A DNA stretch of 41,400 nucleotides from Candidatus Eiseniibacteriota bacterium. GTDB lineage: Bacteria; Arandabacterota; Arandabacteria; Arandabacterales; Arandabacteraceae. The notes below the pieces were generated by a model. The model was not told the origin of the DNA and made no database searches. It saw only the letters and a program-made list of their open reading frames with translations. Positions 1,471-38,691 of this stretch are shown here, piece after piece. Within the stretch, counting starts at the first letter, position 1, and every line of letters begins with the position of its first letter. The DNA lies in the NCBI GenBank assembly GCA_043810925.1, contig JBDRNT010000068.1, positions 1-41,400 on the forward strand, read 5' to 3'. A program made the translations under genes and the position numbers.

Positions 1471-3123
1471 TTGCCTTTGGGTACGCATAAAGACCAGGAG
1501 CCGCGAGGCCACCTCTCTATAGTTCTTCACGCGCATCTTCCGTTCGTGCGCCATCCGGAGTATGAGGAGTTTCTCGAAGAAGATTGGCTATTTGAAGCAA
1601 TAACAGAGACTTACATTCCTTTGCTCAGGGTCTTTGAGAAGTTGGACGCCGATTCGGTTCCCTTCAAGATAACGGTTTCCTTAAGTCCCACCGTGGTGGC
1701 CATGCTCAACGACTGGATGCTCCAGGAGCGCTACTTAAAACGCCTCAATAAACTGGTGGAACTTGCCTCGAAGGAAGTGGAGCGAACCCGCTGGGACTCT
1801 CGGCTGAACCGGCTGGCGCTTATGTATCACTGGCTTTTCGAGAACACGCGCCGGATCTACGCGGACGAATACTCACGGGACCTCGTGGGGGCTTTCCGCA
1901 GGGCGAGCGAGAGAGGAAACGTCGAGATCATAACCTGTTCGGCCACACATGGCTTCTTGCCGCTCATGTCCGTCAACAAGAACGCCGTCAGGGCCCAGAT
2001 AGAGACGGCCTGCAGATACCATCATAGGAACTTCGGTCAGCGGCCCCGCGGCATGTGGCTTCCTGAGTGTGCATACGAGCCGGGTATCGATGAGATGCTC
2101 AAGGCTTCGGGGATCAGGTTCTTTTTCACGGATACCCACGGGATACTCAATGCCGTACCGAGACCGAGATACGGTGTGTTTGCACCGATCTACTGTCCGT
2201 CCGGTGTGGCGGCCTTCGGACGCGACATGGAATCCTCAAGGCAGGTCTGGAGTGCTCAGGACGGGTACCCGGGTGATTTCACCTACCGGGATTTCTACCG
2301 CGACATAGGCTTTGATCTGGACCTCGATTACGTGCGGCCATATCTGCACGGTAATGTCACGCGAGTGCATACCGGTATCAAGTACTATCGCATAACAGGC
2401 AGGGGCGGCGAGAAGGAGCCCTACGATAGTGATGCGGCACTTGAAAAGGCAGCCGAGCATGCCGGGAACTTCGTCCACAACCGGGAACGCCAGATAGAGT
2501 ATCTCCAGGGTATTCTCGAAAGACCGCCAATGGTGATTGCGCCCTATGATGCAGAGCTCTTCGGTCACTGGTGGTTTGAGGGACCGCAGTGGCTCGAGTT
2601 TGTGATGAGGAAGGCGGCGTTCGACCAGAATACGTTCACGCTCACAACTCCTTCTGAGTACCTTTCACGCTATCCGGAGTGCCAGGTTGCCACACCATCG
2701 CAATCGAGCTGGGGTTGGAAGGGCTACAATGAGGTGTGGCTGGGTGGCTCCAACGACTGGATCTACAGGCATCTTCACTGGGCGGCGGACAGGATGGTGG
2801 AGCTTGCCAATGAGGATGACGGTGGAAACGCTCTCAAGGCAAGGGCCTTGACCCAGGCCGCCCGGGAGTTGTTGCTTGCCCAGGGTAGTGACTGGGCCTT
2901 CATCATGAAGACCGGGACCGCGGTTGACTATGCCGTAAAGCGGACCAAGGAGCACATCCTCAGGTTCCGGAGACTCTACAACGATATCAAGCGGGGTTCT
3001 ATTGACATAGAGTGGTTGAGTAATGTAGAAAATAAGGACAATCTGTTTCCCGAATTGGACTATCGAATCTACTCAGACCGGTTCTCCGTGGCCGGAAATA
3101 CCACAGCTGATACGAGGAGGTAA
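1471..3123 (+). CDS. GH57 family 1,4-alpha-glucan branching enzyme (DUF1957 C-terminal domain)
   Basis: LHAHLPFV, WLFEAITETYIPL, ATHGFLP, GMWLPECAY, PYDAELFGHWWFEG, ARELLLAQGSDWAF. Confidence 0.93.
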   Translation: MPLGTHKDQEPRGHLSIVLHAHLPFVRHPEYEEFLEEDWLFEAITETYIPLLRVFEKLDADSVPFKITVSLSPTVVAMLNDWMLQERYLKRLNKLVELASKEVERTRWDSRLNRLALMYHWLFENTRRIYADEYSRDLVGAFRRASERGNVEIITCSATHGFLPLMSVNKNAVRAQIETACRYHHRNFGQRPRGMWLPECAYEPGIDEMLKASGIRFFFTDTHGILNAVPRPRYGVFAPIYCPSGVAAFGRDMESSRQVWSAQDGYPGDFTYRDFYRDIGFDLDLDYVRPYLHGNVTRVHTGIKYYRITGRGGEKEPYDSDAALEKAAEHAGNFVHNRERQIEYLQGILERPPMVIAPYDAELFGHWWFEGPQWLEFVMRKAAFDQNTFTLTTPSEYLSRYPECQVATPSQSSWGWKGYNEVWLGGSNDWIYRHLHWAADRMVELANEDDGGNALKARALTQAARELLLAQGSDWAFIMKTGTAVDYAVKRTKEHILRFRRLYNDIKRGSIDIEWLSNVENKDNLFPELDYRIYSDRFSVAGNTTADTRR

Positions 3124-3129
3124 CTTTCG

Positions 3130-6100
3130 ATGTCGGATGCGACTGAACGCCTCTCCACAAAGGACACCAAGTCGGGCGGCGAGACCGGAGGGCTCGTACT
3201 CGGGCTTGACCTTGGTTCGGTGAGCCTCAATTCGGTGGTGCTGTCCGAAGAAGGCGAAATACTCCATGAGCGGTACACCCGGACCAGGGGCCTGCCAATG
3301 GAGGCCGCGCTATCGGTACTTGAGGACCTCTTCAAGCGTTATCCTGCGCGGAGCTTCAAGGCTGTCGGGGTGACCGGGTCGGGTGGAAAAGCGCTGGCAG
3401 GACTCCTTGACGGTTACTTCGTAAACGAGATCATTTCCCAGGCCAAGGCCATGGAGAAGCTTCATCCGGATGTGAGGAGCATAATCGAGATCGGGGGAGA
3501 GGATTCGAAGCTTATCCTCGTCGAACATGACAAGAAACTCGGCGCTACGATAATCAAAGACTTTGCGATGAACACGATCTGTGCTGCAGGTACGGGCTCA
3601 TTCCTGGATCAACAGGCCAGCAGGCTTGAGGTCAGCATAGAGAAATTCGGTGAGATATCACTTAAGTCCGAGCACCCTCCGAGGATAGCCGGAAGGTGCA
3701 GTGTCTTCGCAAAGACCGATATGATCCATCTCCAGCAGGAAGCGACCCCGGACTATGACATCGTGGCGGGTCTGTGCTTCGCGATGGCCAGGAACTTCAA
3801 GAGCAACATCGCGAAGGGCAAGCAATTCCTCAAACCGATTTCATTCCAGGGCGGCGTCGCTGCAAACAAGGGAATGGTGCGTGCCTCTGAAGAGGTATTA
3901 GATCTTGAAAATGGCGAGCTCGTAATCCCGGGGTACTACGCAGCGATGGGCGCCATTGGTGCCGGCCTTACTGCGATTGCGGGTGGTATTGAGCTTTCGG
4001 AGCCGCTGTCGCTTTCGTCCCTGAAAGACCACATCCGTGCACATGCGGTCCTTGAAGCCGGTCTTGAACAGCTTGTCCTTGATGAGGACAAGCGGTATAA
4101 GCACCGGAAGAAGAAGACGATCCATGCACCCGACGGCAAGACCAGGATCAAAGCCTACCTGGGTATTGATGTGGGCTCGCTCAGTACCAATGTGGTTGCA
4201 ATAGATGAAGACCGGCGGGTGCTTTCGCGGCGGTATCTTATGACCGCCGGCCGACCGATTGAAGCGGTGCGGCAGGGCCTCGATGAGGTCGGTGGCGAGA
4301 TTGCCGGTAAGGTAGAGGTCTGTGGTGTATGTACGACGGGCTCCGGCCGTTATCTTACAGGGGATTTTGTCGGTGCCGATGTTGTGAGAAACGAAATCAC
4401 GTGTCAGGCGATGGGGGCTGCAAGCATAGACCCTACGGTGGACACGGTTTTTGAAATAGGTGGTCAGGACTCCAAGTACATAAGTCTCGAAAACGGAGCT
4501 GTAGTCGATTTCGAGATGAACAAGGTGTGTGCTGCGGGTACCGGGTCTTTCCTGGAGGAGCAGGCCGAAAAGCTCGGTATCAACATCAAAGAGCAGTTCG
4601 GCGATATCGCTCTCACGGCCAAGTCTCCCGTGAGGCTCGGCGAGCGGTGCACGGTGTTTATGGAATCCGACCTGGTGCACCACCAGCAGAAGGGTGCCGA
4701 AAGGGACAATCTCGTCGGGGGCTTGAGTTACTCGATTGTGCACAACTACCTCAACAAGGTGGTGGCAGGCAAGCGCGTCGGGAAGAACATCTTCTTCCAG
4801 GGCGGTCCTGCGGCCAACGATGGTGTGGTTGCCGCCTTTGAGAAGGTGACGGGCGAGAAGATCACGGTCCCTGAGCATCATGATGTGACGGGTGCCATCG
4901 GTGCCGCGATAATCGCACTTGAAACCAACAAGGGGAAGCCGAGCAAGTTCAAGGGCTTCGATCTCAGCAAGAAGAAGTACGAGATCACGAGTTTCGAGTG
5001 CACCGACTGTGCCAACATGTGCGAGGTCAGGAAGGTCACCGTCGAAGGCGAGAAGCCGCTGTTCTTCGGATCCAGATGTGAGAAGTACGAGGTGGACAAG
5101 AAGAAGTCGAAGGGTGAGGGTATACCCGATCTATTCGCCGAGCGTGAGAAGTTCCTCCATAAGCTCTACGTGGAGCCTGATAAGAGTGTTAAGCCGGACA
5201 CCCGGAAGATCGGCGTGCCGCGTATGCTTCTCTTCCATGAGCTCTACCCGCTGTGGCACGCATTCCTGAAGCAACTCGGTTTCGATCCTGTGCTCTCAAG
5301 CAAGACCAACAAGAAGATCATACACTCAGGCATAGAGTCCGTTCCGGCCGAGACGTGTTTCCCTGCCAAGGTTGCGCACGGCCACATCGAGAATCTCATG
5401 AAGAAGGATATCGATTACATCTTTCTTCCGAGCGTGATCAATCTCAAGCAGCGGAATCCATTCATCGAACAGAGTTTCGCGTGTCCTTATGCCCAGACCT
5501 TACCCTATATAGCGAGTGCCGCCTTTGACTTTGAAAAGGAAGGGATCAAGGTCCTCAAGCCCCATGTTTATCTATCACGCGGCAAGGCGGACGTTGCGCG
5601 CACGCTGCGCGAGATGGGTCGCGAGCTCGGCAAGTCGGATAAGCAGATCAAGAAGGCGGTCGAGGCCGGGCTTGAGGCTCAGGATATGTTCTATGCGGCC
5701 TGTAAGAAGCGCGGCGAAGAGATACTCGCCGGTCTCGGCGAGAGGGACAGGGCATTTGTGGTTGTGAGCAGACCCTATAACGGCTGCGACAACGCGGTCA
5801 ATCTTGAGCTACCCAAGAAGCTGAGAGAACTGGGCGCGCTCGCCATGCCTATGGACTTCCTGCCGCTTGACAAGGTCAATCTCTCCCAGGAATGGGAGAA
5901 TATGTACTGGAGATACGGTCAGAAGATAATGTCGGCGGCCGAGCTGATAAGGAAGAACAAGCGGCTCTTCGCGATTTATATCACCAATTTCGGGTGTGGT
6001 CCGGATTCGTTCATTGCGCACTTCTTCAGGGAAGCCATGAGAGGCAAGCCCTACCTCCAGATAGAGATCGACGAACACAGTGCCGATGTCGGTGCGATCA

Positions 6101-7425
6101 CACGCTGTGAGGCGTTCCTGGACAGTCTTGAGCACGCGCGGGTTGTGGAGTTCCAGGATGAGGTTGTTGTTGTCGACGACTCAAACCGGCTGACCGCCGA
6201 CGCGGGTGGCATGAAGCGGAAGCTCTACGTTCCCAACATGTCGCCACACGCCTATCCGTTTGCGGCTGCTTTTACCCGGTCGGGGCTTCCCGCCGAGGTG
6301 CTTCCGGAGTCCGACGGGAAGACGCTTGAGTACGGAAGGAGTTTCACATCGGGCAAAGAGTGCTATCCCTGTATCGTTACGACCGGTGACATGGTCAAGA
6401 AAGTGATGGAGCCGGATTTTGATCCCAACGCCTCCGCATTCTTCATGCCGTCGGGAACGGGGCCGTGCCGGTTCGGTCAGTATAACCGTCTCCAGCGACT
6501 TGTTTTAAAGGAGCTGGGGCATGAGGATGTTCCGATAATATCCCCGAACCAGGGCAGGCAGTTCTATAACGAAATGGGACAGGTTGCCAAGGGCTTCGAC
6601 AGGCTTGCCTGGCGCGGGCTGCTCGCGGTCGACTTCCTCGAGAGGCTGACGCATGAGCGAAGGCCGTATGAGAAGATAAAAGGCAAGTGTGACGACCTCT
6701 TCTGGGAAGGTGTAGAGGATGTGTCCCAGGCCATTCTCGATGGCGTGGACATCTTTGATACGCTTGAAGCATGGAAACAGAAGATGATGGCGATCGAAAT
6801 CGTACCCGACGACACCAAGCCCCTGATCGGTATCGTGGGCGAGGTGTTTGTCCGGACCAACAGGTTCAGCAACAACAACATCGTCATCGAAATCGAGCGG
6901 CTTGGCGGAGAGGCCTGGCTGCCACCCTTTACCGAGTGGGTACTCTATACGAACTTCACCCGGAAGCGGGCCAACTGGGCCGGCAAAGACTACAAGGAAT
7001 GGCTGGTTACCGTGGTCAAGGACCGGGTCCAGAAGAAAGACGAACACACGATGAAGGAGATATTCAGAGGCGCGATTAAGAAACTCGATGAGCCTACGAC
7101 TGAAGAAGTACTCGCTCTGGCCCAGCCTTATGTTCATGACAGTTTCGAGGGTGAGGCGGGTTTGAGCGTGGGTAAGGCCATCGACTTCGTACGGCACGGT
7201 GCGAGCGGGATAATAAACGCGATGCCGTTTACCTGCATGCCCGGTACGATCGTAACCGGTGTGATGAAGCGGGTCCGTCAGGATCTCGATAACGTTCCCT
7301 TCCTTCAGATGGCATATGATGGGTTGGAGCAGACCAACACGCTGATGCGCCTTGAAGCCTTCATGTACCAGGCGGCCCAGTACAATCTCACACGGAAGGC
7401 CGTCCCCGTTAGTCAGAGGGGATAG
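3130..7425 (+). CDS. Fused acyl-CoA dehydratase activase-like protein (two ASKHA BcrAD/BadFG domains + DUF2229 + C-terminal dehydratase-like domain)
   Basis: Two GxDxGS / EIGGxDSK / MNxxCAAGTGSFL / RCxVF sets; CFPAKVAHGH, NFGCGPDSF, CYP, CRFGQY, PFTCMPG. Confidence 0.9.
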   Translation: MSDATERLSTKDTKSGGETGGLVLGLDLGSVSLNSVVLSEEGEILHERYTRTRGLPMEAALSVLEDLFKRYPARSFKAVGVTGSGGKALAGLLDGYFVNEIISQAKAMEKLHPDVRSIIEIGGEDSKLILVEHDKKLGATIIKDFAMNTICAAGTGSFLDQQASRLEVSIEKFGEISLKSEHPPRIAGRCSVFAKTDMIHLQQEATPDYDIVAGLCFAMARNFKSNIAKGKQFLKPISFQGGVAANKGMVRASEEVLDLENGELVIPGYYAAMGAIGAGLTAIAGGIELSEPLSLSSLKDHIRAHAVLEAGLEQLVLDEDKRYKHRKKKTIHAPDGKTRIKAYLGIDVGSLSTNVVAIDEDRRVLSRRYLMTAGRPIEAVRQGLDEVGGEIAGKVEVCGVCTTGSGRYLTGDFVGADVVRNEITCQAMGAASIDPTVDTVFEIGGQDSKYISLENGAVVDFEMNKVCAAGTGSFLEEQAEKLGINIKEQFGDIALTAKSPVRLGERCTVFMESDLVHHQQKGAERDNLVGGLSYSIVHNYLNKVVAGKRVGKNIFFQGGPAANDGVVAAFEKVTGEKITVPEHHDVTGAIGAAIIALETNKGKPSKFKGFDLSKKKYEITSFECTDCANMCEVRKVTVEGEKPLFFGSRCEKYEVDKKKSKGEGIPDLFAEREKFLHKLYVEPDKSVKPDTRKIGVPRMLLFHELYPLWHAFLKQLGFDPVLSSKTNKKIIHSGIESVPAETCFPAKVAHGHIENLMKKDIDYIFLPSVINLKQRNPFIEQSFACPYAQTLPYIASAAFDFEKEGIKVLKPHVYLSRGKADVARTLREMGRELGKSDKQIKKAVEAGLEAQDMFYAACKKRGEEILAGLGERDRAFVVVSRPYNGCDNAVNLELPKKLRELGALAMPMDFLPLDKVNLSQEWENMYWRYGQKIMSAAELIRKNKRLFAIYITNFGCGPDSFIAHFFREAMRGKPYLQIEIDEHSADVGAITRCEAFLDSLEHARVVEFQDEVVVVDDSNRLTADAGGMKRKLYVPNMSPHAYPFAAAFTRSGLPAEVLPESDGKTLEYGRSFTSGKECYPCIVTTGDMVKKVMEPDFDPNASAFFMPSGTGPCRFGQYNRLQRLVLKELGHEDVPIISPNQGRQFYNEMGQVAKGFDRLAWRGLLAVDFLERLTHERRPYEKIKGKCDDLFWEGVEDVSQAILDGVDIFDTLEAWKQKMMAIEIVPDDTKPLIGIVGEVFVRTNRFSNNNIVIEIERLGGEAWLPPFTEWVLYTNFTRKRANWAGKDYKEWLVTVVKDRVQKKDEHTMKEIFRGAIKKLDEPTTEEVLALAQPYVHDSFEGEAGLSVGKAIDFVRHGASGIINAMPFTCMPGTIVTGVMKRVRQDLDNVPFLQMAYDGLEQTNTLMRLEAFMYQAAQYNLTRKAVPVSQRG

Positions 7426-8232: not shown

Positions 8233-8457
8233 TCATTGCGAACTCCCGAAGGGAGCGCGGCAATCCGGCGGCCTGAACCTATGTAGAGATTGCCACGGCT
8301 CCTTCGGAGCCTCGCAACGACACCTCCATGCGTCGGATTGCTTCGTCACTTGGTACCTCGCAACGACACCTCCATGTGTCGGATTGCCTCGTCACTTGGT
8401 ACCTCGCAACGACACCTCCTGGGAGATTGCCACGTCACTGCACTCCTCGCAATGACA
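8233..8457. repeat. Array of REP/RPE-like palindromic units (one inverted unit followed by four direct units, core period 46 bp)
   Basis: TCATTGCG...GGCAATCC (8233-8266), then GATTGC...CCTCGCAA(C/T)GACA units at 8286, 8335, 8381 and 8424 with near-identical linkers. Confidence 0.85.
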
Positions 8458-8497
8458 TGTGCGTGCACCATCCCTCCATATTAGCTGTCAATACAGC

Positions 8498-8525
8498 TTG
8501 ACTCTACGCCAAGTACCGCTAAAAT
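8498..8525 (+). promoter_or_regulatory. sigma70-type promoter
   Basis: TTGACT-16 nt-TAAAAT upstream of the flavin reductase gene (SD AAGGAGG). Confidence 0.6.
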
Positions 8526-8561
8526 ACTTAAGAAACAGGCAAGATCGCCAAGGAGGCGCTG

Positions 8562-9062
8562 ATGGAGGATGTGAGCAAAGTAACCAGCGAATTCTCAGAG
8601 TCTGTCACGGTCGTCACCGTGAAAAAGGGTGACAAAGTCAATGCCATGACTGCCGCCTGGGCGATTCCCGTTTCCCACCGACCGGCCTTGGTTGTCGTGC
8701 ACATAGCCCCACAGAGATACACCCATGACATGATAATGGAAGCCAAGGAATTCGGTTTGAGTGTACTTGCTGAGGATCAGATGGCAATCTCGCAGCATGC
8801 CGGTATCACATCCGGCAGGAAGATCGACAAGTTCGAGAATGGGATAATGAAGCAGAAGCCGTCCAAGGTGATAGCTTCCCCCGTGCTCGAAGGCTGCGCC
8901 GCCACCATGGAATGCAAACTCGAGAAAGCGATAGCGATGGGCGATCATACTATATTCGTTGGACGGGTCGTGGCTATGGAGCGAGATCTCAGCAAGAAGC
9001 CGCTCACTCTGCATCGAGGTACCTATTACGGACTCGGTGAGTCCGTGGGGAAGTACTACTGA
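8562..9062 (+). CDS. Flavin reductase family protein (RutF/DIM6/NTAB-like)
   Basis: NAMTAAW, RYTHDMI, SGRKIDKF, MECKL, GDHTIFVGRV. Confidence 0.92.
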   Translation: MEDVSKVTSEFSESVTVVTVKKGDKVNAMTAAWAIPVSHRPALVVVHIAPQRYTHDMIMEAKEFGLSVLAEDQMAISQHAGITSGRKIDKFENGIMKQKPSKVIASPVLEGCAATMECKLEKAIAMGDHTIFVGRVVAMERDLSKKPLTLHRGTYYGLGESVGKYY

Positions 9063-9135
9063 GTCTCAGCTCTTGACAGTCCGGCCGTGAAGGCCCATCA
9101 CTCAGGTTCTGGTTCTTATTGCTACGGGGAGGCTT

Positions 9136-10227
9136 TTGACAGTGAGAACGATTGCCATTGCGAATCAGAAGGGCGGGTGCGGCAAGACAACGACTGCGAT
9201 AAACCTGTCTGCGTGCCTGTCGCTCAAGGGTAGGACGGTACTCCTGATCGATCTCGATCCGCAGGCGCATGCTACTACCGGTGTCGGTATTGATGTCGAG
9301 GATGTAGAACACAGTGTCTATGATGCACTCTTAGGCGACTGTGGTTTCAGCGACATCACGCGGATGGTCCGGACCGGATTCGATGTCGCGCCGGCAACGG
9401 TGATGCTGAGCGTCTTCGAGCAGAAGCTCGCGGGTGAGCCGGGCAGGGAAAACAAGCTGCGGGAAGTTCTTCTGGGCATGGAGCAGGCTTATGACTACGT
9501 AATAGTGGATTGTCCGCCGAGCATAGGGCTTCTCACCTTCAATGCGCTCAGGGCATGCAACGAGACGATAATCCCGATTGAGAGCAGTTTCTTCTCTTTG
9601 TGGGGAGTAGGCAGGCTCCTCGATATGATCGAGATGATAAGAGAGGAGCTCTCCCACGAGGTCAGGATCAAGGCGCTCTGTACGATCCATGACGGCAGGG
9701 CGCGGTTCTCCGCGGAGATCGTGGAGGATGTGAGGAAGCATTTCAAGGACCGGACCTTCGAGACGGTCGTTCGTGTCAATGTGAAGTTGAGGGAGGCGGC
9801 AAGCTTCGGCCTCCCGATCACTGAATACGACAGGCGTTCGAGGGGATACAGGGAGTACCTCTCGGTTGCGCGGGAGGTCATTGCGGATGAGGATCAGGTC
9901 AGGGTGGAAGAAGCTGTTCAGGTTTCCCTTCCGGCGCCGGAAAAGGAGTCCTATGGACCGAGATCGGTTCCGGGCGGTGTGCTCTTCAAGATCGATGCAC
10001 CGAAAGCCAGCCGAGTCGGCGTTTCCGGGGACTTCAATTCCTGGGAGGATCCGATCCTGCTTAACGATGACGATGAAGACGGTATCTGGATCGCAATAGC
10101 GCGGGTGGATCCCGGGACCTACCAGTACAAGTTCGTTGTGGACGGCGAGTGGATAACGGACCCGTCCAACCCTGTGGGTATCGATGATACTCACGGCGGC
10201 CGTAACTCGATTATGGTGGTGAAATAG
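9136..10227 (+). CDS. ParA/Soj family ATPase fused to C-terminal AMPK-beta-like CBM48 glycogen-binding domain
   Basis: NQKGGCGKTT, IDLDPQAHAT, VDCPPSIG, NVKLREAAS; C-terminal GDFNSW...DGIW...PGTYQYKFVVDGEWITDPSNP...GGRNS. Confidence 0.9.
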   Translation: MTVRTIAIANQKGGCGKTTTAINLSACLSLKGRTVLLIDLDPQAHATTGVGIDVEDVEHSVYDALLGDCGFSDITRMVRTGFDVAPATVMLSVFEQKLAGEPGRENKLREVLLGMEQAYDYVIVDCPPSIGLLTFNALRACNETIIPIESSFFSLWGVGRLLDMIEMIREELSHEVRIKALCTIHDGRARFSAEIVEDVRKHFKDRTFETVVRVNVKLREAASFGLPITEYDRRSRGYREYLSVAREVIADEDQVRVEEAVQVSLPAPEKESYGPRSVPGGVLFKIDAPKASRVGVSGDFNSWEDPILLNDDDEDGIWIAIARVDPGTYQYKFVVDGEWITDPSNPVGIDDTHGGRNSIMVVK

Positions 10228-10228
10228 A

Positions 10229-11185
10229 GTGACCGACGCTAACACGGAGGAAGCGAGGCCCGATCGCAGGGCGAAGACCACCAGACACAGCCGCAAGCTC
10301 GGCCGGGGACTCTCGCAGGTCTCCCACGTGTTCTTGTCGGGTGCCACACGCGAGAAGACTGGGACGACGGCAGGCATCGATGATGCTGCGGACATCAGAT
10401 TCTGGTTGCCGGATGCCAGGCTGATAAGTATCACGTCGGGTGCGGGTGTGTGCGGGAAGAGCATGGTGGCCGCCAATATTGGTTTCGGGCTCTATGAGAG
10501 AGGGCGTAAGGTCGCGTTTGTGGATGCGGATTCCGACAGCCCGGGTATCATGGTGATCACAGGTAGCGTGCTGGCCGAAGCCGGGCACCGGTTGATGAAA
10601 ACCAATGAGGCATTCGGAAACATTGTCATGGTCGGGACTGGTGCCAGGGCGGAAGCTTCGGCCGAAGAAGGATCGGGCTCGACGGCTGCCGCCGGCCATA
10701 TTGAAGAGGCCGCAAGGCAGGCGCGTACCGTGCTGGTAGATACATCGCCGCGGGCGGAATCGAGTTTGACCGTCTGGCAGCTTGCGCGTCTCATACTGGT
10801 CATCACGGAACCGGCCACAGAGAGCATGCAAGCCTCGTACGCGACCATAAAGCGTATCCGCTCAGCTTCGAGGCGCGCAAGGATTGGGGTGATCGTTAAC
10901 AAGGCCAAGGACCACGATGAGGCGGAACAGTGTTTCCGCAAGATATCCAATGTGTCGAGACGTTTCTTGAAGATTAATATCAGAAACTGTGGTTTCATTG
11001 TCCATAGCGATGATGTGAGAGAGGCTTGTGAGCGAGCGGTACCTCTGAGCCGGGCGTTTCCCGGTTCGAGGGCTGCCAGGTGTATGAATTCGATCCTGGC
11101 ACTTATAGTGATGGATGAGTCTGCAATTGCCAGGAGGAGGAGGGAGGTGACAGTAGAAGCGTGCGCATCGAGAGGAGGACAATAG
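10229..11185 (+). CDS. Degenerate MinD/FlhG-like P-loop protein with N-terminal ParB-like LGRGL peptide
   Basis: ITSGAGVCGKS, VAFVDAD, LVDTSP, VITEP..SMQASYATIK, IGVIVNKA, VSRRFL; N-terminal RKLGRGLSQVSHVFLS. Confidence 0.8.
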   Translation: MTDANTEEARPDRRAKTTRHSRKLGRGLSQVSHVFLSGATREKTGTTAGIDDAADIRFWLPDARLISITSGAGVCGKSMVAANIGFGLYERGRKVAFVDADSDSPGIMVITGSVLAEAGHRLMKTNEAFGNIVMVGTGARAEASAEEGSGSTAAAGHIEEAARQARTVLVDTSPRAESSLTVWQLARLILVITEPATESMQASYATIKRIRSASRRARIGVIVNKAKDHDEAEQCFRKISNVSRRFLKINIRNCGFIVHSDDVREACERAVPLSRAFPGSRAARCMNSILALIVMDESAIARRRREVTVEACASRGGQ

Positions 11186-11961
11186 ACAGCGCTAGTGAGC
11201 TTACCACGCTGGTCACGGAGGTCCTCGAGGGAGAAATCAAGGGGTTTCACCTGATTGATCGTGTAGACTTTCCCGGTGACGAGGTTGAAATCGGCCTGCT
11301 TGCAAGTGATGCAGACGGCCGGTTGCTGATCGTCGGTGCAAGGGAACGTTCGGGTGACAGCCTCATCCTCAGCTATGGAAAGCACGTGTCATGGCTCAAG
11401 AGCAGAAAAGATGCATTAGCTAAGAAACATCCCGGGTTGGACTGGACGGGTGAGCCCGGGATTGTGCTTTTATCAGAGAGCTTCAGTCCGCATGTATTGA
11501 CTCTGATCTCAATGCTCGGGACTGAACCGAGGATGTGTTATGGCATCAAATGCCTTGGCATAGGTTCCGAGAAGGGGCTCTATCTGGAGTCGATCCTGCT
11601 TCCCCGGTTCGAACAGGTGAAACAGCCTGTTCCCAGGGAGACCGATCTGCTCTCGAGAGCGGTTTCAAGTGTAGTCGGTGTTGCGGATGACTTGTCCGTC
11701 TCCGCGTCATTCGGCTACGTCAGCGAATCGCTTGATTGGGTGCCGGTTGCCAATGTCAGGAAACGCAGCGGCACCGTCTGGGTGGAATCAGGACCCGGGA
11801 AATGGACGACCAAGAGAGTAGAGGACGAAGAGTCTCTGGTGGATGCGCTTGGCAAGGTCAAGGCGAGCTACGACGAAGTCCTCAGGACGAAGGGCGAAGC
11901 GAAGAACATGAGCGATTCCGAGTTGTCGGATGCCGAGCGCAAGAGTCTGAAGTGGGAATAG
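11161..11961 (+). CDS. Hypothetical protein, NucS/EndoMS-like PD-(D/E)XK fold with apparently lost catalytic residues
   Basis: EIGLLASDADGRLLIVGAR matches the IDxLAxDxxGxLVIxExK pattern except at the catalytic positions; PGIVLLSESFS follows; overlaps the upstream gene by 25 nt. Confidence 0.6.
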   Translation: MRIERRTIDSASELTTLVTEVLEGEIKGFHLIDRVDFPGDEVEIGLLASDADGRLLIVGARERSGDSLILSYGKHVSWLKSRKDALAKKHPGLDWTGEPGIVLLSESFSPHVLTLISMLGTEPRMCYGIKCLGIGSEKGLYLESILLPRFEQVKQPVPRETDLLSRAVSSVVGVADDLSVSASFGYVSESLDWVPVANVRKRSGTVWVESGPGKWTTKRVEDEESLVDALGKVKASYDEVLRTKGEAKNMSDSELSDAERKSLKWE

Positions 11962-11975
11962 CTCTGTGATCAAGG

Positions 11976-12818
11976 ATGCCTGATAAGCCGAGAAGGCTGC
12001 GGCCGATTGACGGGATAGTAATATTCGCGGTATCCCAGGTCGTCGCGGTCGTTGCGACGGTTGTGCTGGCCCTCCGGATATCGATAAGGGCTAACACGGG
12101 TATCTCAGCAGTGGTGGTGCTGTGTGTAGCGGCAGCGCTGCTGAGATACACCGGCCGCAGCCCGTTTCGGTGTGTCAAGTTGGATCGCTTTCGACCGGGT
12201 CTGGTCCTCTATTCCATCCTGGCCAGCCTGGCACTGATCGTACCCACGTTGAGTCTACAGACCATCATTGCCCGCTACCTCACGATCCCGGATGCGGTGA
12301 TAGAAGCCCTGGAGGCGATAGTGCGGGCCGAGAGCCTTCCGGAGCTCATGTACGTATGGCTTATAGCCGCGCTCGGGGCCGCCGTAAGCGAGGAGTTCAT
12401 ATTCCGGGGAGTGCTTCAGAACGGTTTCTCGTCCAGGCTGCGCGGCTGGATCGCAGTTCTGATAACTGCATCCGTCTTCGCGATTCTGCACACCATCTGG
12501 CGGTTTCCGCCGGCCTTCATTCTGGGGGTCTTTCTTGGTGTTCTCTACTGGAGAACAGGTTCGCTCTGGCCGCCGATTGCCGCGCATCTTACGATCAACA
12601 CCGTTACGATCGTTACGCTCTACGTTGCGGAGGTGTTTGGTGATACGGCTGTGCCTCAGTGGCTCGTTGAGGAGCGGCCCGCCCCGATCTGGATGATTGT
12701 GCTCTCCATGATCGCGTTTGCGGGTCTTATCCGGTTGATATGGACTAGGTCGGCTGCCGAGCAGGAAGAAACGCAATCCGACGGACCGGACGAAACTGTC
12801 ACGGTTGATACCCCATGA
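11976..12818 (+). CDS. CPBP (CAAX protease/Abi) family intramembrane metalloprotease
   Basis: EEFIFRG, FAILH, AHLTIN motifs; multiple TM segments. Confidence 0.9.
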   Translation: MPDKPRRLRPIDGIVIFAVSQVVAVVATVVLALRISIRANTGISAVVVLCVAAALLRYTGRSPFRCVKLDRFRPGLVLYSILASLALIVPTLSLQTIIARYLTIPDAVIEALEAIVRAESLPELMYVWLIAALGAAVSEEFIFRGVLQNGFSSRLRGWIAVLITASVFAILHTIWRFPPAFILGVFLGVLYWRTGSLWPPIAAHLTINTVTIVTLYVAEVFGDTAVPQWLVEERPAPIWMIVLSMIAFAGLIRLIWTRSAAEQEETQSDGPDETVTVDTP

Positions 12819-13882
12819 CCTCAAGAGAGCGAATACGCACCGTACTTGCGGGTGGGATTCCCGATCGTGTCCCTATTCACGACGGTTACTGGGATGAGGC
12901 CCTGGCGCGGTGGCAGGATGAAGGGCTCCCGGCCGAGGCGGCGCGCGACCGGGATTCCGTGGGTGACTTCTTCGGCTGGGAAATAAGGATGATCTCGGTA
13001 GATGCCTCGTTCCTTATCGAGGAGCGAATCCTCGATGAGGACGATAGGTATGTCACCAAGGTGACCAAGAACGGAACAGTGCTTAAGCACATAAAGGGTA
13101 AGACATCCACGCCCGGGCTCATCTCATTTCCCGTCAACGGCATGAAGGAGTGGGAGGAACAGAAATGGCGTCTGACCTCGATCGAAGGCCGGCTTCCTGA
13201 AGATCTCGAGCGGAGCTACAGGAGCTACCGCGACGGCGATCGGTTCGTGGTCGTTGTCGTACATGATCCCATCGAGGCATCATGGTCGAAACTCGGTCCG
13301 ACCTACATGATGGAAGCAATGAAACTCGAACCCAAACTGATCCACGATGTCTTCACGACGATTACGGAGCTCAACATAGCGGTATGCGAAGACCTGTTTG
13401 CGAGGGGCTATGAAGTCGACGGAGCATGGATATGGGGTGATATTGCCTACTCCAGGGGAACGTTCTTCTCACCGCAGATGTACCGCGAGATGCTCTATCC
13501 CTATCACAGACGTCTGATCGGTTTCTTCAGGGATCGGAACCTGCCGGTCGTCTATCACAGCGACGGAGACTTCCGCCGGGTGATACCACTGTTGATTGAG
13601 GCGGGTGTGAAGTGTCTGCAGCCGTTGGAGTCGAAGGCAAACATGGATCTCTTCGAGCTCAAGCGCGAGTACGGCGGTCAACTGGCGTTTATGGGCAACG
13701 TCGATTTCGAGAAGATCGCCAGGGGCAAGGACGAGGCGGAGGAGGAGATACGGCTGAAGGTCGGCCGGGGCAAGGAAGGCGGAGGTTACATCTATCACTC
13801 CGACCACTCCGTACCCCCGACGGTAAGCCTCGAAGAGTATAGATGGGTGCTCGACCGGGTGAGGCACCACGGGCGCTACTGA
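12815..13882 (+). CDS. Uroporphyrinogen decarboxylase family (UroD/MtaA-like) TIM-barrel protein
   Basis: MTSRERI...PDRVP, GDIAY...FSP.MYRE, YHSDG, GGGYIYHSDHSVP; ATGA overlap with the CPBP gene. Confidence 0.88.
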   Translation: MTSRERIRTVLAGGIPDRVPIHDGYWDEALARWQDEGLPAEAARDRDSVGDFFGWEIRMISVDASFLIEERILDEDDRYVTKVTKNGTVLKHIKGKTSTPGLISFPVNGMKEWEEQKWRLTSIEGRLPEDLERSYRSYRDGDRFVVVVVHDPIEASWSKLGPTYMMEAMKLEPKLIHDVFTTITELNIAVCEDLFARGYEVDGAWIWGDIAYSRGTFFSPQMYREMLYPYHRRLIGFFRDRNLPVVYHSDGDFRRVIPLLIEAGVKCLQPLESKANMDLFELKREYGGQLAFMGNVDFEKIARGKDEAEEEIRLKVGRGKEGGGYIYHSDHSVPPTVSLEEYRWVLDRVRHHGRY

Positions 13883-13894
13883 TACGGCATCGTC

Positions 13895-14020
13895 TCATCG
13901 CGGGCAAAGCGCGGCGATCTCCTGCGCGGGACATCCTGAGAGATCGCGTCGTCGCTGTCGCTCCTCGCAACGACACGTCCGTGGGTCGGATTTCACGGCC
14001 CTTTGGAACCTCGCAATGTC
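13895..14020. repeat. Diverged copy of the REP/RPE-like palindromic element
   Basis: TCATCGCG...GCGATCTC, GAGATCGCGTCGTCGC...CTCCTCGCAACGACA, GGATTTCACGG...CCTCGCAATGTC; same layout as 8233-8457. Confidence 0.75.
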
Positions 14021-19813: not shown

Positions 19814-19875
19814 CCTGGCAATCCGACACATGAAGGTGTCGTTGCGAGGCTTCGCAGGAGCCGTGGCAATCTCTA
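19788..19875 (-). repeat. Inverted copy of two units of the 8284-8370 repeat, overlapping the comEC 3' end
   Basis: Reverse complement reads TAGAGATTGCCACGGCTCCTGCGAAGCCTCGCAACGACACCTTCATGTGTCGGATTGCC...CCTCGCAACGACACC. Confidence 0.88.
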
Positions 19876-37901: not shown

Positions 37902-38691
37902 GTTTACGAAGATGTCGGGTGCAGGTAATGATTTCATATTCCTGGGACCCGAGTATGCCTCGCTCAAGGAGTGGGCACCAGCGGGCGCCAGGTACCTGTG
38001 CAGGCGGCGGCTTGCGGTCGGCGCAGATGGTCTGATCCTGGTTGAAAAGACCTCCGACGGCATCTTCATGCACTACTATAATAGCGACGGCAGCAAGCCT
38101 GCGTTTTGCGGAAACGGAGCGCGGTGTCTTGTTCGCTTCTGCGATGCCAAGGGTGTGGCGCCGAGTCCTGTCACATTCCGTTCCGAGGCGGGTGTCCATA
38201 CCGGAGAGGTTACGGACTGCGGTGTGAGACTGAGTGTCCGGCCACCCAGATCGATTGACGAGGCCGAGATACAAATCGACGGTGAGTCCTATGCCGTAAC
38301 GCATGTCGAGGCGGGTGTTCCACATGCGGTCTTGCTTGTGAGTGACACTGACGCCATCGACGTCGACGGCCTCGGGCGTGAGATTAGAAATCACCCTTCC
38401 TTTGGCATGGAAGGGGCCAACGCCGATTTTGTGGGCGCCGGGGACGGGGGTGAGTTCAGTATCAGAACCTACGAGCGTGGTGTCGAACGTGAAACACTTG
38501 CCTGTGGAAGTGGATGTATTGCCGCTGCACACGTCTTAAGAGAAAAGGGGATGGCCGGTGACCGTGTGCGGCTCAAGGTGCGCTCGGGTGCCGTGCTCAC
38601 TGCGGAGTTTGCGCCTGACACGACTCCTGCAGTCTACCTTAGCGGATCGGCGGACATCGTTTATGAGGGCGAGATAGAACTGTCCCGATAG
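37888..38691 (+). CDS. dapF: Diaminopimelate epimerase
   Basis: FTKMSGAGNDF, GADG, FCGNGARC, GVPH, RTYERGVE.ETLACGSG. Confidence 0.96.
   Translation: MKTIKFTKMSGAGNDFIFLGPEYASLKEWAPAGARYLCRRRLAVGADGLILVEKTSDGIFMHYYNSDGSKPAFCGNGARCLVRFCDAKGVAPSPVTFRSEAGVHTGEVTDCGVRLSVRPPRSIDEAEIQIDGESYAVTHVEAGVPHAVLLVSDTDAIDVDGLGREIRNHPSFGMEGANADFVGAGDGGEFSIRTYERGVERETLACGSGCIAAAHVLREKGMAGDRVRLKVRSGAVLTAEFAPDTTPAVYLSGSADIVYEGEIELSR

Follow-up and report, generated by a model that had tools for sequence, protein, structure and literature searches.

Candidatus Eiseniibacteriota bacterium (assembly GCA_043810925.1) carries on contig JBDRNT010000068.1 a three-gene locus (9136-11961, + strand) that probably constitutes a non-immune, glycogen-linked cellular system. 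The window analysed here is the whole stretch of 41,400 nucleotides (nt) at positions 1 to 41,400 of this contig. Gene 1 (9136-10227, + strand, 363 amino acids (aa)) combines a ParA/Soj-type ATPase with a CBM48/AMPK-beta-type module, gene 2 (10229-11185, + strand, 318 aa) encodes a P-loop protein of the FlhG/MinD clade with a candidate ParA-activating peptide, and gene 3 (11161-11961, + strand, 266 aa) encodes a protein with a NucS/EndoMS-like fold. The same genes can be read as an immune sensor or as a housekeeping organiser, and the features that discriminate between the two are selection on the CBM, the status of the trio as a core locus and its adjacency to a GH57 gene in a distant lineage. 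The specific mechanism, in which the trio tethers or positions glycogen on the nucleoid, is held more tentatively, as a real possibility and not yet as a probability.

A ParA-type ATPase with a CBM48 module and two putative partners

The gene 1 protein consists of a ParA/Soj-type domain (residues 1-~250), an acidic linker (~251-275) and the CBM48/AMPK-beta-type module (~276-363). It had been described in an initial annotation, made from the sequence alone, as an intact Soj-like ATPase with a glycogen-binding module, and Pfam bears this out, with matches above the cut-offs for AAA_31 (E 2e-52, 178 bits, cut-off 27), AMPK1_CBM (E 8.4e-14, 52 bits, cut-off 26.8, residues 291-361) and CBM_48 (9.2e-6, 26.3 bits, cut-off 22.4). 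All ParA catalytic motifs are intact, namely the Walker A motif KGGCGKT (12-18), DLDPQ (39-43) and VDCPPS (124-129), and residues K12, G13, G14, G16, K17 and T18 are invariant in 14/14 aligned sequences. The closest solved relatives are Myxococcus xanthus ParA (8ray, 2e-59) and Thermus thermophilus Soj (1e-48), while the chromosomal ParA of the same genome shares 43% identity with gene 1. The NCBIfam model ParA_partition scores 105 bits, below its cut-off of 180, and no NCBIfam model reaches its cut-off for any of the three trio proteins. Residues R189 and R218 of Bacillus subtilis Soj are cited in PMC6393308 as required for nucleoid binding, and the residues listed there as contacting non-specific DNA (nsDNA) were mapped onto gene 1 via alignments with HpSoj and TtSoj. 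R188 and K217 of gene 1 occupy the positions of B. subtilis R189 and R218, and R234 that of HpSoj K247, which makes nucleoid binding by gene 1 plausible at the level of sequence.

The CBM48 module (9964-10224, + strand) is marked by FNSW (300-303), YQYKF (329-333), DGEW (336-339) and GRNS (355-358). Among solved sequences it aligns with the AMPK beta-2 CBM (3.3e-10) and also with SEX4, LSF1 and a pullulanase. FNSW, YKF, DGEW and N357, which we take to be the sugar-contact residues, are aligned with identical residues in the AMPK beta-2 CBM. The CBM motifs are kept in 10/10 aligned gene 1 orthologues and in the proteins of two distant loci, L027 and L029. The AMPK beta CBM and the CBM48 modules of SEX4 and LSF1 are the closest solved sequences to the gene 1 module (3.3e-10 to 4e-4); these are eukaryotic fusions to kinase-scaffold or phosphatase domains, whereas the module of gene 1 sits on a P-loop ATPase. 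Since the gene 1 protein has no evident signal peptide or membrane segment, and since ParA domains are cytoplasmic, its ligand should be cytoplasmic too.

The gene 2 protein matches CbiA (Pfam, E 4.3e-11, 43.3 bits, cut-off 25.4) and, more weakly, models for MinD and ParA; the NCBIfam model minD_bact gives 37.4 bits against a cut-off of 212.9. Its N-terminal peptide, RKLGRGLSQVSHVFLSG (10292-10342, + strand, residues 22-38), is a candidate ParA-activating peptide and contains the LGRGL motif at residues 24-28. In 13/13 gene 2 orthologues L24, G25, R26, G27, L28, S32, H33, F35, S37 and G38 are invariant, as are T69, S70 and G71, the P-loop residues G76 and K77, D101 and N224. The basic C-terminal tail, MDESAIARRRRE (residues 295-306), is partly invariant in the same 13 orthologues. 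The claim of a ParB-type activator peptide on a degenerate MinD fold holds for the LGRGL motif and for the MinD clade, but 'degenerate' was overstated for this copy: the P-loop SGAGVCGKS still fits GxxxxGK[ST], and the signature lysine of the deviant Walker A motif alone is gone. This lysine is absent in 12/13 orthologues (A here, V, E or G in 11) and present in one (L015). The ParB protein of the same genome begins with MSRKALGKGLNALI, which resembles the N-terminal peptide of gene 2, and the Lys/Arg-bearing N-terminal tail of ParB proteins is described in PMC11229316 as essential for ParA stimulation.

A profile built from the 13 gene 2 orthologues and searched over 1.84 billion protein representatives returned about seven orthologue clusters (E < 1e-70), followed by a gap, with the next match at E 3e-34. 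Beyond this gap, 3365 proteins with E 1e-10 or better belong to a very extensive FlhG/MinD-like family, in which the nearest non-orthologue relatives of gene 2 are FlhG-like proteins of about 290 aa. Some members of this family start with KLGRGLxDVSHxFLS, the same peptide as in gene 2; in three such distant homologues (P0126, P0147, P0154) the P-loop is wholly lost. Ordinary members of the clade start with a DQAEKLR-type peptide (P0125, P0130), the element by which FlhG activates its partner NTPase FlhF, so that an N-terminal activator peptide on the scaffold of gene 2 has a precedent. Gene 2 differs from FlhG in the loss of the signature lysine and in the exchange of the N-terminal peptide for a ParB-like one, and the locus contains no flagellar genes. 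The transfer of a ParB-type activating peptide onto a MinD-fold scaffold bears on the evolution of ParA partners. Five further proteins (P0124, P0134, P0170, P0182, P0219) are FlhG-like with an intact SGKGGTGKS Walker A motif and have an LGRGL/LGRSL-type N-terminal peptide in place of the DQAEKLR type.

A complex prediction paired residues 1-60 of gene 2 with a dimer of gene 1 (residues 1-262) containing ATP and Mg, alongside three controls. The median ipSAE was 0.34 (runs 0.00, 0.40 and 0.34) against 0.00 for the controls, a weak score that is not counted as evidence; by the calibration of the method, passing scores of 0.60 or less are wrong more frequently than they are right, except where a guess had been likely from the start. 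The partner reached a pLDDT of 29-50, and at least 12% of contacts were shared between the runs. The score is given no weight because complexes of ParA with ParB peptides have been solved (8jmj-8jml), so that it may reflect memory.

Gene 3 encodes a restriction-endonuclease fold of the NucS/EndoMS type (residues 1-150), which is followed by a C-terminal domain (~160-250) and by a conserved tail at the C-terminus, LSDAERKSLKWE. The protein is matched by no Pfam or NCBIfam family. Its AlphaFold2 (AF2) model has a pLDDT of 80 overall and > 90 over residues 1-150, and Foldseek pairs it with EndoMS (5gkj_B, E 2.2e-4, probability 1.00). VIA-align superposes residues 10-132 on NucS (2vld_B) with Z 8.9, a root-mean-square deviation of 2.9 A over 102 residues and 20% identity, in a method where a best Z of 7-8 is common; the next matches are many proteins with a restriction-endonuclease fold (Z 5-7.5). 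The assignment to NucS is firm, because the distant orthologues match Pfam NucS_C (28.1 bits, cut-off 24, in L026; E 1.7e-4 in L027). The best structural match is the C-terminal nuclease domain of NucS/EndoMS, whose N-terminal domain is missing from gene 3.

In TkoEndoMS, residues D165, E179 and K181 are each needed for cleavage according to PMC4838380. A sequence alignment with the same 14/16-residue spacing places these residues at G45, G59 and R61 of gene 3. Position 59 is non-acidic in 30/30 orthologues, position 61 is basic in 25/30, and the gene-3-like proteins of L026 and L027 read D, D and T. Gene 3 of the window thus keeps only one of the three catalytic positions. With the triad reading G45, G59 and R61 and position 59 never acidic, the nuclease is most likely inactive, in agreement with its first description as an inactivated nuclease.

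The C-terminal half of gene 3 (~160-250) is specific to the window's order and absent from L026 and L027. Folded alone it reaches a pLDDT of 60.3, too poor for structure searching, and its matches in the VIA search with the whole model (Z 4.3-4.8) are not trusted. The gene 3 profile finds 0 matches among all PDB sequences at E up to 10, and 30 orthologues searched against Pfam at E up to 10 give chance matches alone (CARME in 10/30). Fused forms of gene 3 are absent from 6848 longer candidates, which is weak evidence.

Conservation and selection within the order and beyond

Among 3108 candidates, the tight gene 3 family accounts for 73 clusters, all with identities of 48% or more and labelled 'hypothetical' wherever they are named. 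In reference genomes it is represented by 15 loci from metagenome-assembled genomes (MAGs), some of them labelled Candidatus Eisenbacteria. Gene 2 precedes gene 3 in 13/13 loci with DNA upstream of gene 3, and the CBM end of gene 1 precedes gene 2 in 12/12 loci that reach further. All three genes are whole in 10 loci, and the remaining loci are cut by contig ends, with no exception to the order of the genes. Gene 3 is present as a single copy in 16 of the 18 species genomes of the phylum, and all 16 belong to one order. By family, it occurs in 13/13 genomes of f1, which includes the window's own genome, in 3/3 of f2 and in 0/2 of f3, both of which are 96% complete. Full-length orthologues of gene 1 follow the same genome pattern. 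Wherever the DNA reaches, the flanks are shared, with a flavin reductase upstream and a CAAX protease and a URO-D-like gene downstream. Within the window's order, the trio is a core locus inherited vertically; its single copy and fixed flanks form the pattern of a core gene and not of a defence island.

A run of a DUF4912 gene, a GH57 gene and an activase gene lies upstream of the trio in 4/4 f1 genomes with enough DNA, with GH57 6-9 kilobases (kb) upstream. Glycogen synthase was found in 15 of the 18 genomes of the phylum, namely in 13 of the 16 that bear the trio and in both f3 genomes. The three trio-bearing genomes without a glycogen synthase match are MAGs with 95%, 57% and 83% completeness. 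ParA-CBM48 fusions restricted mainly to genomes without glycogen synthesis would have spoken against a role in glycogen; here, the majority of the trio-bearing genomes have glycogen synthase.

Metagenome contigs scanned with P0126, P0147 and P0154 yielded four distant loci, L026-L029. L027 contains, in this order, ParA-CBM48, a gene-2-like gene, a gene-3-like gene and GH57, while L026 begins inside the gene-2-like gene and continues with the gene-3-like gene and GH57. In both, GH57 is on the same strand and follows the trio after about 90-120 nt. Compared with the window proteins, the ParA domain is 48-49% identical, the CBM 42-44%, gene 2 25-27% and gene 3 27-29%; L026 and L027 are counted as one lineage because they are close to each other. 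The near-identical contigs L028 and L029 encode a ParA-CBM48 protein of 444 aa, a gene-2-like protein and then a 388-aa protein. In L029 (6774-7940), the latter has a weak match to the gene 3 profile (hhalign 73%, E 3e-5, residues 97-201) and may be a much-diverged nuclease-fold partner. Since the distant L026 and L027 keep the same trio at 25-49% identity, the three genes form an ancient module that is kept together beyond the phylum of the window. The three genes thus co-occur wherever the DNA reaches, both among close relatives and in a lineage at 25-49% identity. Further leads, and leads only, come from ESM Atlas clusters that combine ParA with AMPK1_CBM. The phyla most often named in their labels are Myxococcota, Thermodesulfobacteriota, Omnitrophota and Planctomycetota, and a further close cluster is from Krumholzibacteriota.

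Selection was estimated as dN/dS by the NG86 method on five close locus pairs (four for the URO-D-like gene). The values are 0.05-0.12 for the CBM (5/5 pairs), 0.04-0.09 for the ParA domain, 0.04-0.21 for the domains of gene 3 and 0.16-0.25 for gene 2, compared with 0.05-0.13 for the flavin reductase and 0.07-0.10 for the URO-D-like gene. The CBM of gene 1 is therefore under strong purifying selection and constrained like its housekeeping neighbours. Gene 2 alone is somewhat relaxed, and no segment comes near neutrality.

A proposed link to glycogen and competing explanations

To our knowledge, no mechanism has been described by which bacteria place and pass on glycogen, and the established ParA-type systems serve chromosomes, plasmids, carboxysomes, chemoreceptor arrays and the division site, with no carbohydrate store among them. 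Full-text literature searches found no characterised ParA-type system for glycogen positioning, as had been supposed at the outset; their sole relevant result was the preprint discussed below. The question of glycogen placement becomes directly testable here because the ATPase carries its own cargo-binding module. That the cargo is an alpha-glucan had been proposed from the window and gains from the alignment of the CBM with those of AMPK-beta, SEX4 and LSF1, from the GH57 gene directly after the distant trio and from the glycogen synthase in 13/16 trio-bearing genomes.

ATP-bound ParA dimers bind DNA non-specifically, and CBM48 modules bind alpha-glucans. We infer that the gene 1 protein does both, that its ATPase is stimulated by a partner and that it acts, in some form, in positioning. 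In the mechanism proposed, gene 1 would form ATP-bound sandwich dimers like those of Soj and bind the nucleoid via its retained basic residues. With its two CBM48 modules, each dimer would also hold particles of glycogen or enzymes bound to it, so that glycogen would be tethered to the nucleoid, distributed over it and apportioned when the cell divides. The LGRGL peptide of gene 2 would stimulate ATP hydrolysis by gene 1, leading to release and turnover. The pseudo-ATPase body of gene 2 and the inactive nuclease fold of gene 3 could serve as a joint adaptor, anchored to the granule, to DNA or to a GH57 enzyme. A diffusion-ratchet would operate instead should both gene 2 and gene 3 be located on the granule, and true spacing as opposed to mere hitch-hiking on the nucleoid depends on where these two proteins sit.

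Known systems share parts of this arrangement. The trio resembles the chromosomal ParABS system (Soj/Spo0J) in its Soj-like ATPase and in a peptide like the ParA-stimulating N-terminus of ParB. It differs in having neither ParB (no ParB_N, HTH or CTPase domain) nor parS, in carrying the peptide on a MinD-fold protein and in the glucan-binding module on its ATPase. McdAB of carboxysomes, PomXYZ and ParC/PpfA each combine an orphan ParA-type ATPase with a dedicated partner that has an N-terminal activating peptide, and act on non-DNA cargo. In these systems, the partner marks the cargo and ParA does no more than bind the nucleoid, whereas here the cargo module is part of the ParA protein; the partners of the trio have no sequence relation to those of McdAB, PomXYZ or ParC/PpfA.

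Several points weigh against tethering or positioning of glycogen. The cargo module sits on the ATPase and not on the partner, the opposite of the arrangement in ParABS, McdAB and PomXYZ, so that a ratchet would require gene 2 and gene 3 on the granule, a placement that is assumed. Two of the five mapped nsDNA-contact positions of PMC6393308 are non-basic in gene 1, A193 (HpSoj K199) and V214 (HpSoj K227). The nearness of GH57 within the window's order could be plain synteny, and is weak evidence alone because the whole neighbourhood is syntenic. Direct GH57 adjacency is seen in one distant lineage (two related contigs), i.e., in one of two, and GH57 is absent within 6 kb of the trio in L028 and L029. 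The trio is not needed for glycogen synthesis, since the f3 genomes without it have glycogen synthase. Finally, experts on the superfamily have read the same architecture as an immune sensor, as discussed below. A bolder formulation would make the trio the first partition-type system for a polysaccharide granule, with reversed topology and with an FlhG-clade pseudo-ATPase, bearing a ParB peptide, and a dead NucS-like nuclease timing release, so that glycogen is spaced and shared at division in several phyla. This formulation is conceivable but doubtful.

A glycogen-sensing switch is a rather unlikely alternative, in which the CBM48 module reports on the glycogen store, as in AMPK beta, and glycogen titrates ParA off the nucleoid or alters its dimerisation. 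The output, through genes 2 and 3, would be regulation of a DNA- or division-linked process or of glycogen enzymes. This explanation draws on AMPK beta CBMs as the closest solved relatives of the gene 1 CBM, on a DNA-enzyme fold in gene 3 that lacks catalytic residues and would suit binding or sensing, on the dispensability of the trio for glycogen synthesis as such and on the occurrence of a lone ParA-CBM48 paralogue, with no partner genes, in at least 10 of the 18 genomes. All of this evidence fits positioning equally well, however, and the trio contains no transcription-factor domain, kinase or other output module (Pfam, NCBIfam); nor can a regulated target be named.

The architecture of the trio is already catalogued and not new. 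A computational preprint (Li, Burroughs, Aravind, bioRxiv 10.64898/2026.10.19.760177, 22 October 2026) describes a 'CBM-containing system' with ParA fused to AMPK1_CBM, and a variant in which ParA-CBM is combined with another, fast-evolving ParA and a restriction endonuclease (REase), both predicted to be inactive. The trio has the architecture of this variant 2 as the preprint describes it (ParA with a C-terminal AMPK1_CBM, an inactive second ParA-like protein and an inactive REase), except that gene 2 retains GxxxxGK[ST]. The function is read differently there: the CBM lectin would detect an infection-derived carbohydrate or the depletion of a polysaccharide, ParA multimerisation would limit the invader, and the inactive REase might add a DNA signal. 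The ground given for carbohydrate sensing in immunity is rapid divergence of the CBM, and the preprint places the ParA in the conflict-associated branch ConB5 and reports a sporadic spread over phyla.

For the window's lineage, such an immune role is quite improbable. In its favour, besides the description of exactly this variant and its ConB5 placement, are the faster evolution of gene 2 relative to its neighbours (dN/dS 0.16-0.25), the ESM Atlas clusters in several phyla and the weak matches of the gene-3-like protein of L027 to the PADLOC candidate family PDC-S11 over the nuclease N-terminus. The CBM's rapid divergence is not seen here, where the module evolves slowly (dN/dS 0.05-0.12) and at the pace of housekeeping neighbours. 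The trio is single-copy in 16/16 genomes of the order in a constant housekeeping neighbourhood, and domain annotation of the neighbours shows no flanking mobile-element or defence genes. In PADLOC-DB 2.0, genes 2 and 3 have no match and gene 1 has a P-loop-local match alone (PDC-M28B, E 3e-4, residues 4-41). The trio lacks an effector domain and its nuclease is inactive. The distant lineage places it directly before GH57, and the main text of the preprint mentions neither GH57 nor branching enzymes nor the LGRGL peptide. Compared with the system of the preprint, the locus described here thus has a CBM under purifying selection, is a syntenic core locus and is joined to GH57 in a distant lineage. 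This housekeeping evidence holds for the window's lineage, and immunity elsewhere in the family may be compatible with it.

Least likely is a scaffold for granule initiation or enzyme recruitment, in which the trio would gather glycogen enzymes such as GH57 by a logic like that of plant PTST-family CBM48 proteins; GH57 directly 3' of the trio in L026 and L027, published CBM48 proteins with targeting roles in starch (e.g., PMC4339375) and related CBM48 modules fused to a GH57 enzyme in the same genome fit this idea, but the plant analogy is functional alone, the proteins are unrelated outside the CBM, and the idea overlaps with tethering or positioning of glycogen.

Layout of the locus and the host genome

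The open reading frames (ORFs) lie exactly where the initial annotation had placed them, and the sequence agrees with the ORF list in a gap of 1 nt between genes 1 and 2 and an overlap of 25 nt between genes 2 and 3. The true start of gene 1 is probably GTG 9142, because the 361-aa orthologues all begin at this residue. A longer co-directional run encloses the trio, with the flavin reductase (8562-9062) upstream and the CAAX protease (11976) and the URO-D-like gene (12815) downstream, so that tight spacing alone does not delimit the three genes. A scan for promoter-like sites (6 against 3.3 +/- 2.1 expected) and terminator-like sites (7 against 4.5 +/- 2.2) was uninformative; the best promoter-like site on the + strand (8498-8525) lies 5' of the flavin reductase. 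A look-up of public sequencing runs for 8400-14000 listed none.

The GH57 1,4-alpha-glucan branching enzyme that had been noticed upstream is indeed encoded at 1471-3123 (+ strand; Glyco_hydro_57 1.1e-39, BE_C 3.5e-40), outside the operon. Directly 5' of it, a DUF4912 protein (301-1467, + strand), syntenic with GH57, is weakly Rho_N-like at its N-terminus and weakly glucodextranase-B-like at its C-terminus. Positions 3130-7425, between GH57 and the trio, encode a 1431-aa protein in which two BcrAD/BadFG-type activase ATPase domains are fused to DUF2229 and an HGD-D-like domain; it is found at this place in every relative examined (74-78% identical). The stretch between a GNAT gene and the flavin reductase contains a 46-nt unit in about 3.3 tandem copies (8310-8462), whose first 21 bases recur intergenically at 13963-13983 and 19829-19849 (- strand). 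Allowing up to 3 mismatches, there are 5 matches, compared with 0 in 100 shuffles, and this 21-base element may represent a dispersed intergenic repeat family.

The assembly consists of 185 contigs and is 92% complete. A role of the trio as the chromosomal parAB was rejected, as a canonical rsmG-parA-parB run sits on another contig of the same genome. The reported absence of parB and parS nearby also stands: ParB_N has no match on the window's contig (the two matches of the genome are on other contigs), and the window contains no parS within 2 mismatches. The best match, with 3 mismatches at 38481, is 27 kb away and at chance level, at least one such match occurring in 11/100 shuffles.

The same genome encodes a GT5 glycogen synthase and at least four GH57 enzymes. 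It also contains a second ParA-CBM48 gene on contig C169 (L004: 285-1355), whose product of 356 aa is 43% identical to gene 1. This gene is solitary, faces an ATP-cone/uridine-kinase-like gene and lacks the second of the CBM's conserved tryptophans; solo counterparts of this type are those counted in at least 10 of the 18 phylum genomes. On contig C151 (L035: 3311-12672), a starch-utilisation-like locus encodes two CBM48 proteins, two ABC permeases, a solute-binding protein and a 1182-aa CBM48-GH57-Glucodextran_C protein, with CBMs that are 38-50% identical to that of gene 1.

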